This document shows positions 13,767 to 59,910 of a DNA stretch of 64,000 bases, piece after piece; positions within the stretch are counted from its first letter, which is position 1; each line of letters begins with the position of its first letter. Under the pieces are notes generated by a model. It saw only the letters and a list, made by a program, of their open reading frames with translations. It made no database searches and was not told the DNA's origin. The DNA is from an uncultured Nitrososphaerota archaeon. GTDB lineage: Archaea; Thermoproteota; Nitrososphaeria; Nitrososphaerales; Gagatemarchaeaceae. The stretch spans positions 736,001-800,000 of the forward strand of contig CAWISW010000003.1 in the NCBI GenBank assembly GCA_963838925.1, read 5' to 3'. Made by a program: the position numbers and the translations under genes.

Positions 13767-14567
13767 TCAGCCGATGTAGCCGGGCTTCCCCTCGTCCTTG
13801 GCGCCCCTCGCCTCCTCGAGGCCCTGCTCGGCCATGCCTTGGACCTGGCTGAAGATCTGCTGGGCCTCCCTGGCCCTCTCCTCGATGGAGGTCATGTCTA
13901 TCTTGACTCCCAGTATCCGGGAGAGCGCCTCCAGCACCGAGTGCGATGCGGCCGGGTCGAGCAGGTAGCCCGAGGTCTCCCCGAGGAGCGAGACCCCCTC
14001 CATCCCCAAGAGCTTCGCCATCCCCACCATCACCCCGTTCATCCCGCTGATCCCTCCCTCCTTCATGATCTGCACGCCGTTCTGCGATAGCCGCGGAAGG
14101 ACGTCGAGCGAGGTCGCCGTCCCGAAGACGCGCCTCTCCTTGACGAACCCACCGGTGATGTAGGCCGCGAGCGAGAAGACCGTGCCCGCGTGGAGCCTCT
14201 TGGCCTCGTTGAGGACCGCCTCCGCCAGCATGTACTCCCCGTCCGAGGTCGCCGGCTGGGCGTCCGCCGTGAAGATGAGCAGGTCGCTCCCCTGCCCCGT
14301 CTCAGCGTGGAAGAGCTCGCCCTTCAGCCTGAGCGCAACCCCCTCGTCGTTGATGTTCACGTGGGGCGGGAAGGACGCAGCGTAGAACTCCGCGACCTTG
14401 CTCGCCTTGAACACGGTCACGAGGTAGTCGGCAGCGAGCTTCCCCACGTAGCCGCTCCCGGGGAGGCCGCAGACGAGGACGGGCTTCGACGGCGAGGGGC
14501 TAGAGACCGTCTTCACCCGAATCTCGGGAAGGGCCGTGACGATGCCCGACCCGCGCCGCTCCTCCAT
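13767..14567 (-). CDS. proteasome assembly chaperone (PAC2 family)
   Basis: GLPGSGYVGKLAADYL, GISGMNG, LLGETSGY. Confidence 0.85.
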   Translation of the reverse strand: MEERRGSGIVTALPEIRVKTVSSPSPSKPVLVCGLPGSGYVGKLAADYLVTVFKASKVAEFYAASFPPHVNINDEGVALRLKGELFHAETGQGSDLLIFTADAQPATSDGEYMLAEAVLNEAKRLHAGTVFSLAAYITGGFVKERRVFGTATSLDVLPRLSQNGVQIMKEGGISGMNGVMVGMAKLLGMEGVSLLGETSGYLLDPAASHSVLEALSRILGVKIDMTSIEERAREAQQIFSQVQGMAEQGLEEARGAKDEGKPGYIG

Positions 14568-14574
14568 CTCCCTG

Positions 14575-14979
14575 TCAGCCCTCTTGCATGTCCATCTTCA
14601 GCTTGTCTTTGAGGTCCACGAACCTTCCCTTGTCCTGGACCTTGATCGTGGTCTTCAGGCTGAACCTGATCCCGAGGTTCCTGAAGAGCTCGTACAGCTC
14701 TCCCCCGGATATCCTCTCCCTCCCTCCGTTCTGTATCAGCAGCCTCGCAAGCTGGTCGACTATGATCTCGGTCTGACGGGGATAAGCCTGGTACGCGGTC
14801 TGGAGCACCTCGTCTCCCCTGTCGTAGAGCGCGTCCAGGACGACCTCCCTGCTGGTCTTGGCCGGCTTCTGCGCGGCCGCGGCGGCGAGCGTGGACGCGG
14901 CCGAGGCCCTCTGCGCCCTCTTCTTCAGCTCCGCTAGCTTGCGGGCGTTGATGAGGTTGAGCTCCGCGTCTTCTTCCAA
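14575..14979 (-). CDS. PDCD5-like double-stranded DNA-binding protein
   Basis: EEDAELNLINARKLAELKK, DRGDEVL..A..AYP, GELYELFR..GI; TTG start at 14979. Confidence 0.65.
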   Translation of the reverse strand: MEEDAELNLINARKLAELKKRAQRASAASTLAAAAAQKPAKTSREVVLDALYDRGDEVLQTAYQAYPRQTEIIVDQLARLLIQNGGRERISGGELYELFRNLGIRFSLKTTIKVQDKGRFVDLKDKLKMDMQEG

Positions 14980-31365: not shown

Positions 31366-32532
31366 TTGAGAAGCGTCGCCATAGCGGGCCTAGGCCACTC
31401 CAAGTTCGGAAGGAGGACCGACGTCGACGTGGCCGAGCTCGCGTTCGAGTCGATCAAGCAGGCCATCGATGACTCCGGCGTCCAGAAGAAGGAGATCCAG
31501 AACGTCACGCTCGGGAGCGCGGGCGGCTGGTACGAGGAGACCCTCCCCGCAGTGCTGGTAAACGAGTACGCCGGGTTCGAGGACGTAGGGACCATGCGCG
31601 TGGAGGCGGCGTGCGCAAGCGGGAGCGCGGCGGTTAGGAGCGCGTACCTCAGCGTGGCGAGCGGGGAGGCGGAGGTGGCGATGGCCGTCGGCGTCGAGAA
31701 GATGACCGAGGTGGACACGCTCACCGCCGTCGAGCTGATGGGGAGGTCAGGCTCGTACCTCTGGGAGTTCGAGAACTACGGGATGACGTTCCCCGCCTAC
31801 TACGCCCTCTACGCGGCGGCGCACATGAGCAGGTTCGGGACCACCCAGGAGGACCTCGCCAGGGTCGCCGTCAAGGCCCACCACTACGCGTCCATGAACC
31901 CGCTCGCCCAGTTCCAGAAGGAGATAACCCTGGAGAAGGCGCTCTCTTCGCAGGTCGTCTCGTGGCCCCTCAAGCTCTACGACGCATGCCCCATCACCGA
32001 CGGCTCGGCAGCGGTCGTCCTTGCAAGCGAGGAGGCCGCCAGGCGTCTCACCGACACCCCCATCTGGATCCGGGGGATCGGCTTCTCTTCCGACTCTGCA
32101 AACCTCAGCAAGCGGGCCGACTACGTGGGGCTCAGGGCCACCGTGGACGCGTCGAGGAAGGCGTACGCGGCCGCCAAGGTCGGGCCGGAGGACGTGGACG
32201 TCGCCACCTGCCACGACTGCTTCACGATAGCCGAGCTGATGGCCTACGAGGACCTCGGCTTCTGCGCGAAGGGGGAAGGGGCCAAGCTCATCCGTGAGGG
32301 GCAGACGGAGGTCGGAGGCAGGATACCGGTCAACGTCGACGGGGGCCTCAAGGCGAAGGGCCACCCCATCGGGGCGACCGGCGTCTCTATGATGGTGGAG
32401 ATCTCGAAGCAGCTCAGGGGCGAGGCGGGAGGGAACCGGCAGGCCTCCATCAAGAACGGAGTCGGGCTCGTCCACAACGTGGGGGGGACCGGCCACTACT
32501 GCTACGTCACTGTCCTCTCGAGGTCGAAGTAG
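31366..32532 (+). CDS. thiolase (archaeal/SCP-x type)
   Basis: EAACASG, HDCFT, GHPIGATG, HNVGG. Confidence 0.92.
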   Translation: MRSVAIAGLGHSKFGRRTDVDVAELAFESIKQAIDDSGVQKKEIQNVTLGSAGGWYEETLPAVLVNEYAGFEDVGTMRVEAACASGSAAVRSAYLSVASGEAEVAMAVGVEKMTEVDTLTAVELMGRSGSYLWEFENYGMTFPAYYALYAAAHMSRFGTTQEDLARVAVKAHHYASMNPLAQFQKEITLEKALSSQVVSWPLKLYDACPITDGSAAVVLASEEAARRLTDTPIWIRGIGFSSDSANLSKRADYVGLRATVDASRKAYAAAKVGPEDVDVATCHDCFTIAELMAYEDLGFCAKGEGAKLIREGQTEVGGRIPVNVDGGLKAKGHPIGATGVSMMVEISKQLRGEAGGNRQASIKNGVGLVHNVGGTGHYCYVTVLSRSK

Positions 32533-32973
32533 TTGGCGGACGACAGCTCCCCCCCGACCATCAGGTCGAAGCGCAGCCTCACGCTCAGGTTCAACATCCC
32601 GATGTCGAAGACCAGCCGGTTCTGGGAGGCCCTTGGCGAGGGGAAGTTCGTCACGACGAAGTGCGACGACTGCGGGAAGCTCACCTTCCCGCCACAGGCG
32701 GACTGCCCCCGGTGCATGAGCGGGAACTCCAAGTGGGTGGACCTCGGGGCCGAGGCCGAGCTCCTGACCTTCACGCACGTCCAGATCACGCCGACCAGCT
32801 TCGTCGACCACGACCCCTACGTCGTCGCCATCGGGAAGCTGAAGGAGGGGTTGAACGTCCTCGCGTGGGTGGAGGGCGCAGAGCCGGAGAAGCTCGCCCC
32901 GGGCGTGAAGCTCAGGATCGAAAGCAGGAAGGAAGCTGAAGGCGGGCCCGACTACGTCTTCGTCTTGGCATGA
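32533..32973 (+). CDS. DUF35 Zn-ribbon/OB-fold thiolase partner
   Basis: KCDDCG..FPP..DCPRC; abuts the thiolase gene. Confidence 0.88.
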   Translation: MADDSSPPTIRSKRSLTLRFNIPMSKTSRFWEALGEGKFVTTKCDDCGKLTFPPQADCPRCMSGNSKWVDLGAEAELLTFTHVQITPTSFVDHDPYVVAIGKLKEGLNVLAWVEGAEPEKLAPGVKLRIESRKEAEGGPDYVFVLA

Positions 32974-32986
32974 CCAGCGACGGTCG

Positions 32987-33370
32987 CTAGAACTCGACCT
33001 GGATCGAGCGTATGACCTCGGCGACCCTCAGGAACCTGTCCTTGTAGAAGAGGATCTTCGTTATGGACCCCTTGAACTTCAGGAGCCCCTTTAGCACCGC
33101 CGACTGGAAGTCGACCTCCCCCTTCGCGACCTTCGTCCACGTCTCGTACGAGCCCTCGAAGGAGAACTCGGCCTGCGTCGCAAAGTCCGACGGCGCGACG
33201 GTAGTCTTACCCTCCTCGACCTTGATGAGGTAGAACGACGCGACGGCCGAGTCGACCGAGCCCAGCTTCACGCTCGTCTTCAGGCCCTTCGTCCCCTCCT
33301 GCCACTTCGCGTCGTTCGTCAGAAGATCCTGCAGCTGCACGAAGAACTCGGGCGAGAAGTACTTGACCAT
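32987..33370 (-). CDS. SCP2 sterol/lipid-binding domain protein
   Basis: TWTKVAKGEVDFQSAVLKGLLKFKG. Confidence 0.8.
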   Translation of the reverse strand: MVKYFSPEFFVQLQDLLTNDAKWQEGTKGLKTSVKLGSVDSAVASFYLIKVEEGKTTVAPSDFATQAEFSFEGSYETWTKVAKGEVDFQSAVLKGLLKFKGSITKILFYKDRFLRVAEVIRSIQVEF

Positions 33371-33654
33371 CAGCTACCCGCCCCGGGGACGGCTTTTTTG
33401 AGCTTACCTATCGCCCCCGAGGTCAGCCTCGACTTGAGGGTGACCGCCCCCGCGCTGACCTCGAGCGCGTCCTTCACCATCGGGAGGTCTACGCTGTCGG
33501 TCTTCACTATGACGGCGTGGTCGAACCAGACGGCCTTCTTCGCGAGGGCGGGGGATATCTTCGCGATCCTGTGGGTGAGCTCCTTCCGAGCCTCCTCGTC
33601 TATCTGGGCCTCGCTCGTCAGCATGAGGTACCTCTTGTGCCTGGGCCCTCTCAA
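33370..33654 (-). CDS. probable RNase P protein Pop5/Rpp14-like
   Basis: RHKRYL at N-terminus, TSGAIGKLKK at C-terminus; TTG start overlaps the upstream stop. Confidence 0.55.
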   Translation of the reverse strand: MRGPRHKRYLMLTSEAQIDEEARKELTHRIAKISPALAKKAVWFDHAVIVKTDSVDLPMVKDALEVSAGAVTLKSRLTSGAIGKLKKAVPGAGS

Positions 33655-56010: not shown

Positions 56011-56643
56011 TCACATCGAGAAGAGGATCTTCGAGGTCTTGACATCGGGCAGCGTCGCCCCGAGCCTAGCTGTGGTTATCTTGACGCCCCTCTTCGCGGC
56101 CTCGCGGACGACCTCCTCGCCGGCCAGGCGCTGGTCGTAGCCCAGTGCCACTACGTCTGGCCTGATCCTGAGAAGGATCTCGTAGATGCTCCCCTTGTTC
56201 CCGGGGAGGGCAAGGTCCACCTGCCTCATCGACGAAACCAGCCCGACCCTGGAGGCCTGGTCGGTCACTGGCGGCCTCCCCTTGTTCCTCTCCACGCTCC
56301 CGTCCGTCGCGACCACCACCACCAGCGTGTTCCCGAGGCTCCTTGCCTCGGCGAGGGCGTGGACGTGCCCAGGATGGATGATCTCGAAAGCCCCGCCGAG
56401 CATGATCACCTTCAGCCGCCGCCTGCCCGCCGGAGTGAGTCGGACTAGGCCTTTCTCCACCTTGACCAGGTTCCTCTCGTCCGACTCCCTGATGGCGGAA
56501 CGAGTCGCGCTCGCCGCAATCCCCAGCCGCGCGCTCACCGAGCCCACCGTGGCTCCGCCTCCCCTCAGTCCCTCGACGTAGACGGCCCTGAGCAGGTCCA
56601 CCGTCTCGATAGTCGAACGGCCCCCGGGCTTTCGCCGCGTCAC
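56011..56643 (-). CDS. ribL: FAD synthase (cytidylyltransferase fold) with N-terminal wHTH
   Basis: GGAFEIIHPGH, RPDVVALGYDQ, KTSKI. Confidence 0.8.
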   Translation of the reverse strand: MTRRKPGGRSTIETVDLLRAVYVEGLRGGGATVGSVSARLGIAASATRSAIRESDERNLVKVEKGLVRLTPAGRRRLKVIMLGGAFEIIHPGHVHALAEARSLGNTLVVVVATDGSVERNKGRPPVTDQASRVGLVSSMRQVDLALPGNKGSIYEILLRIRPDVVALGYDQRLAGEEVVREAAKRGVKITTARLGATLPDVKTSKILFSM

Positions 56644-57680
56644 CAGCTGAGCTTCACCTCTCCGGTGAAAGAGAGCGCGTCGATGAGGCCCTCGGCGTAC
56701 CCAACGCTGAGCATGGCGAGCTCGTCCTGGTTGTTCGCCAGGAAGTTCTCCGAGTCCTTCAGGTAGAGCTCGGCGTTCTCGAGCAGGTCCTTGTGCCTCT
56801 CCTTCAAGCTCTCTCTCGCCTCCTTGAGCGCCCGCTTCGCTTTTTCAACATAACGAGGCACCAAGACCTGTGCCGTTCGTTTGACCGTAGCCGAGTTGTC
56901 GACGATGTCCTTCTTGTCTATCTTTAGGACCGCCTCAAGGACCTCTTCCTCGGTGAAGTGCAGCCTTCCCGGGATTATGACGCAGTGGGGCGGCGGCCCG
57001 AACGACCTGGACCCGAGCGCCCCCATCGGTCCTCCGATGACGGATGCGTCCTTCATGCCGACCCTGCCCAGGACCAGCGCCAGCGTCCCCTCGGACAGGA
57101 CCTCCCGCTTGAAGTTCTTCTCCGCGTCCATGAGCCTCTGGAAGACGAAGCTCGGCTCCACGCCCTGCTTCTTCTCGACGTCGTACTCCAGCAGCAGCAG
57201 CGTGTGCTGGCCCTCGAGCAGGTTGCGGTGGATTCGCTGGTAGACGTCCTGGTGGTGGGAGGCGCTCTCCACGGTGAAGGTTATCGTCCCTCCGAACTTG
57301 TAGTAGTGGAGCCCGCTCTCGCTCGCCGCTGCAGCCGGGATCGTCGTCCCGTGGACGACGCTCGTCCGTATCCCCCGGGAGGCCGCCCTTACCCTGAGGT
57401 CGTTGTGGGTGGTCGCGATCATGGGGTCGCCCTGGACGGCGAGCACAACCCTGGAGGCGCCCGCCTTCTCGAGGATCTCCCTTCCGTCTTCCACGAACTC
57501 CCTGCCGACGAGCGAGACCTTCTTCCCCGTCGCCATCTCCAGGTCGTCTACCAGCGCCGCCGAGCCGGGTGAGGTGTAGCGCTCGAGGTATGTCGAGTCG
57601 GAGGACTTTATCGCATCTATCCCCGCCAAGCTGACGCCGCGTTCCCCAAGCCCCAACCCCACGAAGACCAGTTCTCCCAA
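56640..57680 (-). CDS. dph5: diphthine synthase with C-terminal DUF357 domain
   Basis: FVGLGL, ERYTS, GDPMIATTH, GLHYYKFG, LHFTE; AELYLKDSE...GYAEGLIDAL. Confidence 0.92.
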   Translation of the reverse strand: MGELVFVGLGLGERGVSLAGIDAIKSSDSTYLERYTSPGSAALVDDLEMATGKKVSLVGREFVEDGREILEKAGASRVVLAVQGDPMIATTHNDLRVRAASRGIRTSVVHGTTIPAAAASESGLHYYKFGGTITFTVESASHHQDVYQRIHRNLLEGQHTLLLLEYDVEKKQGVEPSFVFQRLMDAEKNFKREVLSEGTLALVLGRVGMKDASVIGGPMGALGSRSFGPPPHCVIIPGRLHFTEEEVLEAVLKIDKKDIVDNSATVKRTAQVLVPRYVEKAKRALKEARESLKERHKDLLENAELYLKDSENFLANNQDELAMLSVGYAEGLIDALSFTGEVKLSW

Positions 57681-57737
57681 GTTCTCGCCACGGGCGACCG
57701 CCGGCTCCCTAATAATACTCGACGCCTGCGGTGGAAA

Positions 57738-57745
57738 GTAAATAT
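57738..57745 (+). promoter_or_regulatory. TATA-like box of the tRNA-Lys gene
   Basis: GAAA GTAAATAT about 27-34 nt upstream of tRNA position 1. Confidence 0.5.
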
Positions 57746-57771
57746 CCCACACTTTGACCGGCACCCATGCG

Positions 57772-57913
57772 GGGCCCGTGGCTCAGAGGCTCAGTCGAGA
57801 AGACTGAGTCGAGAAACCAGGTCAGAGCGGCTGGCTCTTAGCTAGCAGTGGGAGCAACCAGCATGTCGTGGGAAGCGTCAAAGCGCTCACGAATTCAAAT
57901 CCCACCGGGCCCG
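57772..57913 (+). tRNA. tRNA-Lys(CTT) with three introns (57787-57816, 57841-57856, 57873-57893)
   Basis: Spliced: GGGCCCG TG GCTC AG|CCAGGTCA GAGC G GCTGG CT CTT A|A CCAGC ATGTC GTGGG|TTCAAAT CCCAC CGGGCCC G; all four stems pair; BHB-like motif at each junction; CCA not encoded. Confidence 0.92.
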
Positions 57914-59203
57914 CACAACTCTCCTCTTCCCTTGCTTGCCTGAACCTCTGACTTTTCTAACAACAATACTGCGCAAGGTCTTTTCGTCGTCAAGATACGA
58001 AAAGATGATGAAACCTACGCGAATTGCACTATTGTTAGCGAAGTCCTGACCCAGTTTCCTTGCGAGGGAAGCGAGTTGAGTTTTGATTGCCTCTTCTCGG
58101 CTGAACGGAAGAAATTGTGTAAAGTCCGCGATTAGTCTCGCCTGAATCGAGAAACGGTGATCAGCGGTCCAAAGGTCTCTTCCGCCTGCTGAAGGCTCGC
58201 CGATAACGGGGTTACTTAGTCCTAAGAATCTGGTACCAACCGAGTGAGCTATTTCTGCGCCTAACCTTCCATGTTCATAGGCTGTTCCTGAGTAAAGCAT
58301 CTTGTTTTCAAGAGCCCTCAGGATTCGCACCTTGAAGTGGAGGTGCGAAGTGGGTAACCCCTTAAGAAAGGATGGCGCCGCCTTTTCCAATTCAAAATCG
58401 AAAAGTTCCACGGGACTCTTGAGATAGCTTGTCCACAGATTGAATCTCCTAAACTTGCTGTAGGCGATTATCAGTCTGATTCCGTCCGAGAATACTAATC
58501 TTGCAATTCTGAACTGTCTTCCATCTTCAACTCCAAGTAACCCGTGGCAATCTCCGTCGTGATAAAGTGCCAGCCTCTTTTCTCGACTGAACAAGTCATT
58601 AACCTTCGCAATGAGTCGAGGTCGTCGGTTTGAGCTACCAAGATTTGTTATGGTGGCCTGTATATGGAATGATTCCTTCATCCGTCCCCGTTCTTGATCT
58701 AGATGGAGCCTTATTGCGCCCTTACCAATAACTTCAAAGGACATTCTGACTCTTTTTGGAGCTCGTCTTATTCCGATTGAGTTGAGAAACCTAACCTCCT
58801 TAAGGTTCTCGAGAAAGAGCCCATGAGTCAGAAGGCGCAGCCGAAGGCTTACCCTTGCGCCAACTGGCGCAGCATAGCTGGGGATTGTCGGCCTCCAAAA
58901 CAGCTTGCCTTCAAAAGCTCGGTAGAAGAGATGACTCGAACCCGCGACTTGGATTTCATAAAACCTTGCAAGAGGTGATGACCCAATCTTCTGTTTGTTG
59001 GGCCCTGGCAAATCTTCGGAACGGATTCGCAACCTTCCGGCTTTGTTAATTCTGGCATTCAATGACGCGACTTGCTGAATCGCACTGTCTGGTGGATTTG
59101 GTAGCACCCGCTCTCTCCCGATTATCACAATCTGCTTTATATTCGCCGACGCCAGGAATCGCAAGCGAGCTTCAGGTCTTGCATCTAGAGTTCGATATCG
59201 CAA
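57887..59203 (-). CDS. hypothetical basic protein with C-terminal PD-(D/E)xK nuclease-like motifs
   Basis: 438 aa ORF, AT-richer than host; HGRLGAEIA...GGRDL...SIQAR; start uncertain. Confidence 0.55.
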   Translation of the reverse strand: MRYRTLDARPEARLRFLASANIKQIVIIGRERVLPNPPDSAIQQVASLNARINKAGRLRIRSEDLPGPNKQKIGSSPLARFYEIQVAGSSHLFYRAFEGKLFWRPTIPSYAAPVGARVSLRLRLLTHGLFLENLKEVRFLNSIGIRRAPKRVRMSFEVIGKGAIRLHLDQERGRMKESFHIQATITNLGSSNRRPRLIAKVNDLFSREKRLALYHDGDCHGLLGVEDGRQFRIARLVFSDGIRLIIAYSKFRRFNLWTSYLKSPVELFDFELEKAAPSFLKGLPTSHLHFKVRILRALENKMLYSGTAYEHGRLGAEIAHSVGTRFLGLSNPVIGEPSAGGRDLWTADHRFSIQARLIADFTQFLPFSREEAIKTQLASLARKLGQDFANNSAIRVGFIIFSYLDDEKTLRSIVVRKVRGSGKQGKRRVVRARWDLNS

Positions 59204-59399
59204 GCATACTACAGAAACGATTGCAACGAGTGAAGGACAAACAGAATCGAGACTCGATGAATTCTCGATGTCAATGGATATGAGAACCTAGGCAAGTTTG
59301 GGAGCTTCATTGGATCTCGAGATCCCTTAATCAAAACAAGGACTCATTACTTTCTCTTATCCAGGAAATAGTCATGGGTTCAAATCCCACCGGGCCCGC
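57894..59399. mobile_element. tRNA-integrated single-gene cassette (no integrase) bounded by 21-bp direct repeats
   Basis: TTCAAATCCCACCGGGCCCGC at 57894-57914 and 59379-59399; abrupt compositional shift between them. Confidence 0.75.
59371..59399 (+). repeat. att-like copy of the tRNA-Lys 3' end in intron-less form
   Basis: GTCATGGGTTCAAATCCCACCGGGCCCGC vs intron-removed GTCGTGGG|TTCAAATCCCACCGGGCCCGC (28/29 identical). Confidence 0.9.
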
Positions 59400-59526: not shown

Positions 59527-59910
59527 TTGACCGTGGTGAGCCTTTCTTTTCCCGATAGCATGCTGAAGGAGATGGACGCAATCCAGAAGGACTCGGGGTT
59601 CACGGGGAGGTCAGAGCTCGTCCGTGCCGCGATTCGAATGCTTCTCGAAGACTCGAGGGAGAGGGCGGCTTCCGTGGGAGAGATGAACGGGTTGCTCGTG
59701 GTCACCCACGACGAAGAGGAGGAGGCGCCCGTCACCAAGCTGAAGCACCAATACGAGGACATCATCACCACGCATGTCCACAACAAGACCAAGACGTCGA
59801 TGTGCATAGAGCTCTTCGTCGTCCAGGGGGACGCCAAGAAGATCAACGCCATGACCAAGTCCTTCCAGGCCGAGGACAAGATGAAGAGCACGAAGCTCAT
59901 CCCGATCTAG
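59527..59910 (+). CDS. NikR-family metalloregulator
   Basis: RHH N-terminus (VVSLSF..GRSELVRAAIR); KLKH, THVH and MCIE metal ligands. Confidence 0.88.
   Translation: MTVVSLSFPDSMLKEMDAIQKDSGFTGRSELVRAAIRMLLEDSRERAASVGEMNGLLVVTHDEEEEAPVTKLKHQYEDIITTHVHNKTKTSMCIELFVVQGDAKKINAMTKSFQAEDKMKSTKLIPI

Follow-up and report, generated by a model that had tools for sequence, protein, structure and literature searches.

Integration into tRNA genes has been attributed almost entirely to tyrosine recombinases. How, then, did a 1,485-bp unit holding one gene and no such enzyme come to lie at a tRNA gene? This question is raised by a tRNA-Lys(CTT) gene in the 64,000-nt stretch of archaeal DNA analysed here, hereafter the window, which lies on contig C3 of a 1.84-Mb assembly (G000; 61% G+C (GC); 87% complete). 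An earlier note on this DNA had described a stretch of AT-richer sequence that separated the tRNA gene from a copy of its 3' end, and had proposed an integrase-less cassette with a nuclease-like open reading frame (ORF) as its only cargo. Our best reading is that a minimal mobile element, consisting of one gene and a short element-borne copy of the tRNA-Lys(CTT) 3' end, has integrated here as the 1,485-bp unit. We tentatively favor the view that this one-gene element is autonomous and that the protein is its own tRNA-gene nuclease or recombinase, at a little less than an even chance.

Structure of the tRNA-Lys(CTT) locus

Neither default ARAGORN nor the Rfam gathering scan returned a tRNA in the whole window; therefore, the tRNA-Lys exons were spliced by coordinates. 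The joined exons formed a 76-nt molecule that ARAGORN called tRNA-Lys(ctt) under both parses of intron 2, and removal of the introns gave a canonical cloverleaf in which the acceptor, D, anticodon, and T arms match. The canonical 37/38 parse of intron 2 was consistent with the intron-less alleles in the genus. Furthermore, the fold of the pre-tRNA had a z of -4.4 relative to shuffles, and the minimum-free-energy fold contained hairpins in introns 1 and 3. The features of the locus are as follows.

56640..57764, minus strand: host flank, diphthine-synthase-like methylase gene (TP_methylase and DUF357; Pfam PF00590, 8.5e-16, and PF04010, 2.1e-14)
57772..57915, plus strand: three-intron tRNA-Lys(CTT) gene, the functional copy, at the left end of the cassette (ARAGORN on coordinate-joined exons)
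57787..57816, plus strand: intron 1, 30 nt, in the D-loop (coordinate splicing)
57841..57856 (other parse 57849-57864), plus strand: intron 2, 16 nt, at the canonical 37/38 position (cloverleaf under both parses)
57873..57893, plus strand: intron 3, 21 nt, in the T-loop, immediately 5' of the repeat (coordinate splicing)
57887..59107 (frame open to 59203), minus strand: single cassette gene, 406-aa short form, with predicted N-terminal beta-barrel domains and a predicted C-terminal restriction-endonuclease-like domain
57894..57914, plus strand: left copy of the 21-bp direct repeat (T-loop, 3' strand of the T-stem, 3' strand of the acceptor, discriminator +1)
57915..59378, no strand: inserted AT-richer DNA, 45-51% GC (GC profile; no match at empty sites)
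59371..59399, plus strand: right copy, intron-less 29-nt tRNA 3' end (28/29; 21-bp core 59379-59399), followed by the host flank TCAAAT...
59527..59910, plus strand: host flank, NikR-like regulator gene (Pfam NikR_C, 1.2e-11; RHH_1, 3.8e-06)

The exact 21-bp direct repeat, TTCAAATCCCACCGGGCCCGC, was found at 57894-57914 and 59379-59399, 1485 bp apart, and its flank-to-flank alignment score was reached by none of 300 shuffles. Ahead of the right-hand core, 59371-59378 (GTCATGGG) matched the exon piece 57865-57872 (GTCGTGGG) at 7 of 8 positions, bypassing the 21-nt intron at 57873-57893, and the total match across the junction was thus 28/29, as the earlier note had stated. By simple arithmetic with equal base frequencies, the chance of at least 7/8 at one fixed place is about 4e-4. 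An extension of the right copy to the anticodon loop was rejected, since shuffles matched it in 211/500 and 82/1000 cases.

The AT-rich character of the DNA between the two copies was also confirmed: the insert had 45-51% GC, lower than the 3.5 kb upstream (approximately 60-68%) and the downstream DNA (52-63%). The assembly at the left junction is backed by a public soil run, of which one Illumina-type contig covered 57688-57922 with zero differences. Elsewhere in the 1.84-Mb assembly, the 21-nt sequence occurred once more, on contig C2, where it forms the 3' end of a tRNA-Arg(CCT) gene (92484-92561). The 21-nt 3' end of this tRNA, whose T-stem was read with an A-A mismatch, was identical to that of tRNA-Lys(CTT), and it might have been replaced by an element-borne copy.

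The empty site in relatives

Subsequently, the left flank was searched in 40 relatives, in 23 of which the methylase flank was syntenic by DNA search, and 11 other loci were returned and read. At one locus of the same genus (L023; flank DNA identity 79-81%), the methylase gene, tRNA-Lys, and nikR were contiguous, with nikR beginning 54 nt past the tRNA. No match to the insert was found at any of the 11 orthologous loci. The letters TCAAAT follow the tRNA at the empty sites, and the same letters follow the right-hand copy in the window. The contiguous empty site and the shared TCAAAT flank therefore indicate that the repeat-bounded unit is an insertion with precise ends. At the tRNA-Lys site, the cassette was seen in only two lineages, that of the window and that of L005.

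Distribution of the cassette gene and its flanking repeats

The earlier note had asked whether homologs of the ORF recur next to tRNA genes with 3'-end duplications. They do: of 22 distinct short-form loci, 19 had the family gene abutting a tRNA gene, and supported repeats were present at seven loci, the window included. These counts leave out five family matches of G020 that had no locus. Within the genus, the gene was adjacent to a tRNA in 12/15 short-form loci. At ten of the 15, a tRNA gene on the opposite strand started within approximately 40 nt of the stop codon. The tRNA was validated at five of these ten, by ARAGORN (L035, L044, L046, L063) or, at the window's own locus (L038), by splicing; at the other five (L039, L040, L043, L045, L052) it was read by eye from the acceptor/D-arm and T-arm/acceptor halves with complementary acceptor strands. 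At L053 and L041, the gene lay between a tRNA and a same-orientation repeat of that tRNA. At three of the 15 (L036, L037, L058), a tRNA at the gene end was absent. The gene was split or truncated at five of the 15 (L043, L044, L046, L052, L053).

On metagenome contigs, all seven distinct short-form loci abutted a tRNA, with the gene antisense to it (L004, L005, L006, L016, L017=L018) or upstream of it (L011=L013, L015). Furthermore, three database homologs terminated in peptides translated from the same tRNA 3' end. The target tRNAs that were read belonged to at least eight species: Lys-CTT, Glu-CTC, Gln-TTG, His-GTG, Thr-CGT, Thr-TGT, a CAT tRNA, Leu-GAG, and a Pro-like tRNA.

Supported flanking tRNA repeats were found at seven distinct loci with a spacing of about 0.94-1.49 kb, and the duplicated tRNA segment measured 21-61 nt.

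Window: spacing 1485, score reached by 0/300 shuffles
L004: spacing 1349, 0/300 shuffles
L017=L018: spacing 1231, 0/300 shuffles
L071: spacing 1224, 0/300 shuffles
L074: spacing about 940, gene fragment only, 0/300 shuffles
L003=L053: spacing 1417, repeat of 60/61 nt
L041=L076: spacing 1443, 51/54 nt of the tRNA 5' half

Within these supported pairs, neither another gene nor a tyrosine recombinase was found. The repeat of L071 was recovered later by local alignment, and that of L074 was significant by shuffling. The two repeat copies at L071 differed by compensatory T-stem changes, which indicates that the displaced copy came from another allele. A candidate repeat at L066, read by eye as 17/21, was rejected because it was not significant in the shuffle test. 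Among 13 extended loci, a blastn-short search of the 12 kb upstream (E<0.05) left 11 without a second tRNA copy. In L065, L066, L070, and L071, the low-GC tract coincided with the gene alone.

The encoded protein and its family

The sole long ORF of the insert (57887-59203, minus strand) was open for 438 aa, and the database gene call gave 406 aa with a start at approximately 59107. Its 3' end overlapped the tRNA gene by 29 nt, so that the last codons run through the left repeat and the ORF stays unsplit. No other supported ORF of at least 80 aa was found in the insert. With regard to the one-gene, integrase-less character proposed earlier, Pfam gave no family for the ORF at E<=1, PF00589 included, and NCBIfam gave no relevant match. 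The cassette was free of tyrosine and serine recombinases, and no recombinase family matched any of the 46 family members. Nothing usable came from Foldseek on both structural models or from the ESM Atlas (best score 0.78), and no relative was found on viral contigs.

An exhaustive search of 1.84 billion cluster representatives returned relatives in 150 clusters at E<=1e-3 and in 26 at E<=1e-30. The family was present in 13 of 23 genomes of the genus, G000 included, and in none of 18 other genomes of the order; among 400 further genomes sampled from the phylum, weak partial matches alone were found, in six. Short forms had 340-480 aa and contained no transmembrane (TM) or hydrophobic segment. 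Long forms had 714-810 aa, with about 350 extra N-terminal residues that opened with a TM helix and a serine/threonine-rich stretch, and were located in multi-gene, low-GC regions. Pfam returned nothing for this N-terminal extension, for the conserved ORF behind the long forms, or for two island neighbors. Stand-alone proteins consisting of the beta-barrel part (229-263 aa) also exist.

One long form was found in G000, on C3. This paralog sits amid copies of a repeat of about 100 nt (L001 3040, 7246, 8145, 8824), and the same repeat flanks a long form on a metagenome contig (L014). The repeat (core GGGTTCATTGCGCCTCCGCCGG, then GGCATTTCACTC...) had 23 copies within 3 mismatches in G000, all of them in two low-GC regions (C3:171-204 kb and 363-372 kb), where they were intergenic and irregularly spaced. 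The repeat may be a promoter or leader, an att-like site, or an RNA.

Selection on the gene was estimated from the ratio of nonsynonymous to synonymous substitution (dN/dS). Between the ORF and the L005 copy, dN/dS was 0.18 over 159 codons, and the gene is therefore under purifying selection. In a quick tree of 37 rows, from which two short rows had been dropped, protein clades with one tRNA each were recovered with Shimodaira-Hasegawa-like approximate likelihood ratio test values of 99 for Lys, 100 for Thr-CGT, and 94 for His.

The AlphaFold2 model with the family alignment (mean predicted local distance difference test score, pLDDT, 91) showed beta-barrel domains followed by an alpha/beta domain, and the C-terminal domain folded alone reached a pLDDT of 88. 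An N-terminal motif may resemble AbrB/SpoVT-type DNA-binding barrels. The top VIA matches of the C-terminal domain mostly had the restriction-endonuclease fold: 3syy with a Z of 8.1 (root-mean-square deviation (rmsd) 8.1, 110 residues aligned) and 3k93 with a Z of 7.6 (rmsd 4.2, 106 aligned). Further matches were CdiA-CT (Z 7.1), Hje/Hjc (Z 6.3-6.4), tRNA-splicing endonuclease subunits (Z 5-6.4), and I-Ssp6803I (Z 5.1).

E317, G341, and D343 were invariant in 55/55 sequences; position 354 was Q in 43 and E in 12, and R356 was present in 53/55. E317 lies in the first long helix of the domain, D343 ahead of the next strand, and Q/E354-x-R356 in the strand after that. In distant relatives from other lineages, a canonical GPD...E-x-K occurs at the collinear place. 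Hence, the conserved residues appear to be positioned as a PD-(D/E)xK site would be, and "nuclease-like" is a reasonable description. No match was found to a curated PD-(D/E)xK superfamily sequence profile, or among Pfam, NCBIfam, and PDB sequences, with either the protein or its 46-member profile. Two such distant relatives, in other lineages of the phylum (L082:1657-2817 and L078:2854-3567; E about 1e-10 to 1e-14), carry GPD...E-S-K, begin at the stop codon of a neighboring gene, and have no tRNA gene nearby. The C-terminus of that neighbor appears similar to a tRNA-guanine-transglycosylase (TGT)-type protein.

tRNA-Lys alleles and the place of crossover

We read 16 functional copies of tRNA-Lys(CTT) in the genus and found at least six intron patterns among them; the T-loop intron was absent from 8/16. 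In six species free of the cassette (G022, G006, G012, G018, G002, G011), the 37/38 and T-loop introns were homologous to those of the window and no D-loop intron was present. Since cassette-free species share the T-loop intron, it would be older than the insertion, which would place the crossover within the 21 bp behind it. The host tRNA-Lys thus appears to have carried the T-loop intron at the time of insertion, and the element's tRNA copy probably derived from an allele lacking that intron. Among the options listed by the earlier note, recombination through the remaining 21 bp that bypassed an existing intron is the best fit to these observations.

A second cassette of the same protein clade (L004; 48% identity) was arranged differently. 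Its right-hand, non-functional copy was an almost full tRNA of the two-intron type, which is the type of the nearest empty relatives, and its flanks were identical at 15/16 and 15/17 positions to those of G012 and G018. The functional left copy was of a different type, with D-loop and D-stem introns and an intron-free 3' half. The simplest reading is that the L004 element carried in an almost entire tRNA copy of its own, with the crossover close to the 5' end. Crossovers at two places within one clade would argue for homology-driven recombination rather than for a fixed-site recombinase. Whichever the crossover place, we infer that the cassettes exchange intron content with the host tRNA gene.

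The D-loop intron was present at 4/4 loci where the family gene abutted the tRNA and at one (G009) of 11 species-representative loci without the gene; kin among these loci are not independent. This intron could be element-borne, gene-converted, or a shield for a cleavage site.

Proposed mode of movement

Under the favored explanation, the single protein would bind DNA and act as the element's own mobility enzyme. Its C-terminal PD-(D/E)xK-like domain would make a cut in or close to either the tRNA gene or the tRNA copy of the element, and host homologous recombination between the two tRNA sequences would then complete the insertion, leaving a duplicated tRNA segment. The insertion would resemble ends-in integration or homing and would involve a circular intermediate. 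As any block of shared exon sequence can host the crossover, intron content would be swapped between the element copy and the host gene. A bolder form of this proposal, which we consider possible with a probability well short of even, is that the PD-(D/E)xK-type protein of about 400 aa represents a new class of integrase, neither tyrosine, serine, DDE, nor Cas1. Acting alone, such a protein would make the cut and use homology with the element-borne tRNA copy to place a 1.2-1.5-kb element in tRNA genes; as a by-product, introns would be moved in and out of tRNA genes, driving the rapid intron turnover in the genus.

Several observations weigh against an autonomous element. The repeat ends exactly at the tRNA 3' end, which is just what tyrosine integrases and classical tRNA-gene (tDNA) islands produce. 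The VIA Z scores of the C-terminal domain are at most 8.1, all within the range that the tool calls common, CamS lipoproteins score on a par with nucleases (Z 7.0), and Foldseek gave no match at E<=0.001. The arginine that replaces a catalytic-type lysine in 53/55 sequences may point to an inactive nuclease fold. The description of the ORF as nuclease-like has moderate support in fold and motif, and with this substitution nuclease activity would be putative. The TM helix and serine/threonine-rich linker of the long forms suggest an extracellular location, which is hard to square with a recombinase.

The synonymous distance (dS) between the window and L005 was 0.62 for the ORF and 0.90 for the neighboring host gene; these values fit vertical co-inheritance, and the two copies look co-inherited with the host, with no sign of recent movement. 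The pattern of one tRNA per protein clade is equally expected under vertical inheritance. A significant second repeat was not found at seven tRNA-abutting loci (L064, L065, L066, L070, L072 (18/300), L073, L075). The 5' crossover at L004 is read from an inferred ancestral allele, and the argument from two crossover places uses two loci. No circular form, excision junction, or joint across the insert was seen in the contigs from four of the five public runs that contain parts of the stretch, but these contigs were short and of low depth, so that the negative carries no weight either way.

The most serious alternative, which we judge rather unlikely, is a non-autonomous satellite with an attachment (att) site, moved in trans by tRNA-specific tyrosine integrases, with the ORF as selected cargo such as a restriction-like, defence, or addiction gene. 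The earlier note had listed mobilisation in trans among its options, and this option stands. In four supported pairs, including the window, L018, and L071, identity is limited to the last 12-21 nt of the tRNA, which fits a fixed crossover near the acceptor end, whereas the arrangement at L004 suggests a crossover place unlike that of the window. In a genome of the same genus (G001), a 411-aa ORF lies directly behind tRNA-Lys(CTT) (L033:2748-3980; the contig ends 3 kb past the tRNA) and is homologous to the PF00589-positive recombinase of G000 (24% identity, E 1e-14); the ORF probably belongs to an integrase-bearing element of the classical kind that occupies the same att site. A copy of the 21-nt core with one mismatch was found at the end of another G001 contig. 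Against such helpers, the single tyrosine recombinase found in the 87%-complete G000 genome, its sole PF00589 match, is encoded about 780 kb away on C3 (L021; 12443-15976). This 431-aa ORF lies not at a tRNA but beside a 219-aa C-terminal glutamine-synthetase-like (glnA) fragment, which suggests an element integrated into a protein-coding gene. The long vertical persistence of the gene under purifying selection would suit a cargo, as would the distant canonical PD...ExK relatives that adjoin a TGT-like gene and not tRNAs. However, the same lone gene occurs at seven loci in at least five tRNA species, so that several helper integrases would need to have captured the same cargo, and no cassette with other cargo was seen.

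An autonomous element was also weighed against explanations in which the present structure is secondary. The unit might be the eroded end of a once-large integrase-bearing island in which the DNA between the gene and the right repeat was deleted. The seven tRNA-abutting genes without a detectable second repeat, the split or truncated genes in the genus, and the multi-gene, low-GC surroundings of the long forms are in keeping with erosion, but it would have had to stop alike at seven independent loci, each with repeats on both sides at 0.94-1.49 kb and a lone gene. Moreover, the low-GC tract is only gene-wide in L065, L066, L070, and L071, and the window insert contains no integrase remnant; we regard erosion as improbable. 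Still less probable is insertion into an intron-less tRNA gene followed by gain of the T-loop intron, as the earlier note had suggested. The fast turnover of intron positions in the genus speaks for such a gain, yet the T-loop and 37/38 introns are homologous in six cassette-free species, the cassette at this site was seen in the window and L005 lineages only, and the right copy of L004 holds both introns, which were thus present there before insertion. We find it scarcely credible that an RNA-templated step on mature tRNA gave rise to the intron-less copy. The match of 28/29 across the intron junction had led the earlier note to see a mature tRNA, which was an over-reading: the copy looks like another genomic allele, and since intron-less 3' ends are ordinary genomic alleles in the genus, an RNA template is unnecessary. 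In addition, next after the copy comes CTCAAAT, the non-CCA flank also present at the empty sites; the cassette encodes no reverse transcriptase, and no post-transcriptional edits were seen.

Other mobile and tRNA-like features

The tRNA-Lys(CTT) locus also carries insertions of another kind. In G014 (L030:2627-3289) and G020 (L028:2573-3223), an insertion of approximately 0.7-0.85 kb lies between the methylase gene and tRNA-Lys(CTT), with an ORF of about 220 aa that has a LAGLIDADG motif (Pfam LAGLIDADG_3, E 0.001, below the cut-off); the same place is also occupied by insertions in G012 and G019. Accordingly, the locus gathers several kinds of selfish genes. Elsewhere in G000, a tRNA-Pro(TGG) call (C3:415542-416485) contained an 865-nt intervening sequence of 51% GC with a 259-aa frame and a LAGLIDADG-like motif, which may be a homing-endonuclease-bearing tRNA intron.

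With introns allowed, ARAGORN called ten "giant-intron" tRNAs genome-wide; most look false, with 5' halves in coding sequence, and none contains a family member. Two calls in the window, tRNA-Ser at 14365-14724 and tRNA-His at 32416-33384 (with "introns" of 258 and 871 nt), also look false, as their ends lie in high-GC coding-like sequence.

Relation to known elements

The cassette most closely recalls tDNA islands with tyrosine recombinases, namely, the pNOB8-type elements and the thaumarchaeal integrated mobile genetic elements (iMGEs), which, in the accessible text of a survey, likewise insert at the 3' (sometimes 5') part of tRNA genes (PMC6563490). Islands and cassette alike restore the tRNA gene, leave a displaced partial copy as a direct repeat, have a foreign composition, and occur at filled and empty sites. 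In contrast to the islands, the cassette contains no tyrosine or serine recombinase and encodes one protein of unrelated fold, and its crossover place appears to be variable. It is also smaller: the smallest element given in that text has 2.6 kb and four genes including an integrase, compared with 1.2-1.5 kb for the cassette (PMC6563490).

The nearest precedent, likened by its published description, is a 1,868-bp insertion between a tRNA fragment and the full tRNA-Thr(GGU) of Caldiarchaeum subterraneum (Sugahara et al. 2012, PMC3293823). The insertion has an ORF "b" of 271 aa, which was classed only by SVMProt, and an extra repeated region of 545 bp. Like the cassette, it is small, has one ORF of unknown family beside a tRNA, occurs in multiple copies per genome, and shows an allelic intron difference. 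Its authors proposed that the attP of a mobile element carries or lacks an intron and thereby alters the host gene, and they assumed that a pNOB8-type integrase acts from a plasmid (PMC3293823). Apart from this case, full-text search of the literature gave no description of the protein family or of integrase-less one-gene tDNA cassettes; supplementary tables might list small elements.

Homing endonuclease genes, such as that of I-Ssp6803I (a PD-(D/E)xK enzyme of a tRNA-fMet intron; PDB 2ost), are similarly single selfish nuclease-type genes that are tied to a tRNA and polymorphic for presence and absence. They spread by break and repair with co-conversion of flanks, as the cassette is proposed to do, and the fold similarity to I-Ssp6803I is weak (Z 5.1). 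Unlike homing genes, the cassette gene lies outside an intron, its target is partly duplicated (21-61 nt), and its protein carries QxR in place of ExK along with additional beta-barrel domains; cleavage by it is putative. With Hjc/Hje and other PD-(D/E)xK nucleases (lambda-exonuclease-like, Cas4, CdiA-CT), the protein would share the core fold (Z 6.3-8.1) and acidic residues at the expected places. It differs from them in the lack of a sequence-profile match, the arginine for lysine, and about 245 extra N-terminal residues. The "suicidal" integrases of the SSV type resemble the cassette in having a recombination site that overlaps a single essential gene and a compact integration module (PMC7253208). 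In contrast to these, the cassette ORF overlaps the site by its last 29 nt only, is unsplit on integration, and has no homology to tyrosine recombinases.

We regard the cassette as a tRNA-gene integrative element; it would be categorically new if its protein proves to be an integrase. If this one-gene element is indeed self-sufficient, with a nuclease-like protein unrelated to tyrosine recombinases, it would be the smallest tDNA-targeting element known and would move by a novel mechanism. A further point of interest is the proposed shielding of tRNA genes from integration by introns: at this locus, an intron just before the last 21 bp failed to prevent the insertion. Furthermore, it provides concrete filled, empty, and chimeric alleles for the model, proposed for Caldiarchaeum (PMC3293823), in which mobile elements with tRNA copies of their own add introns to tRNA genes and remove them.

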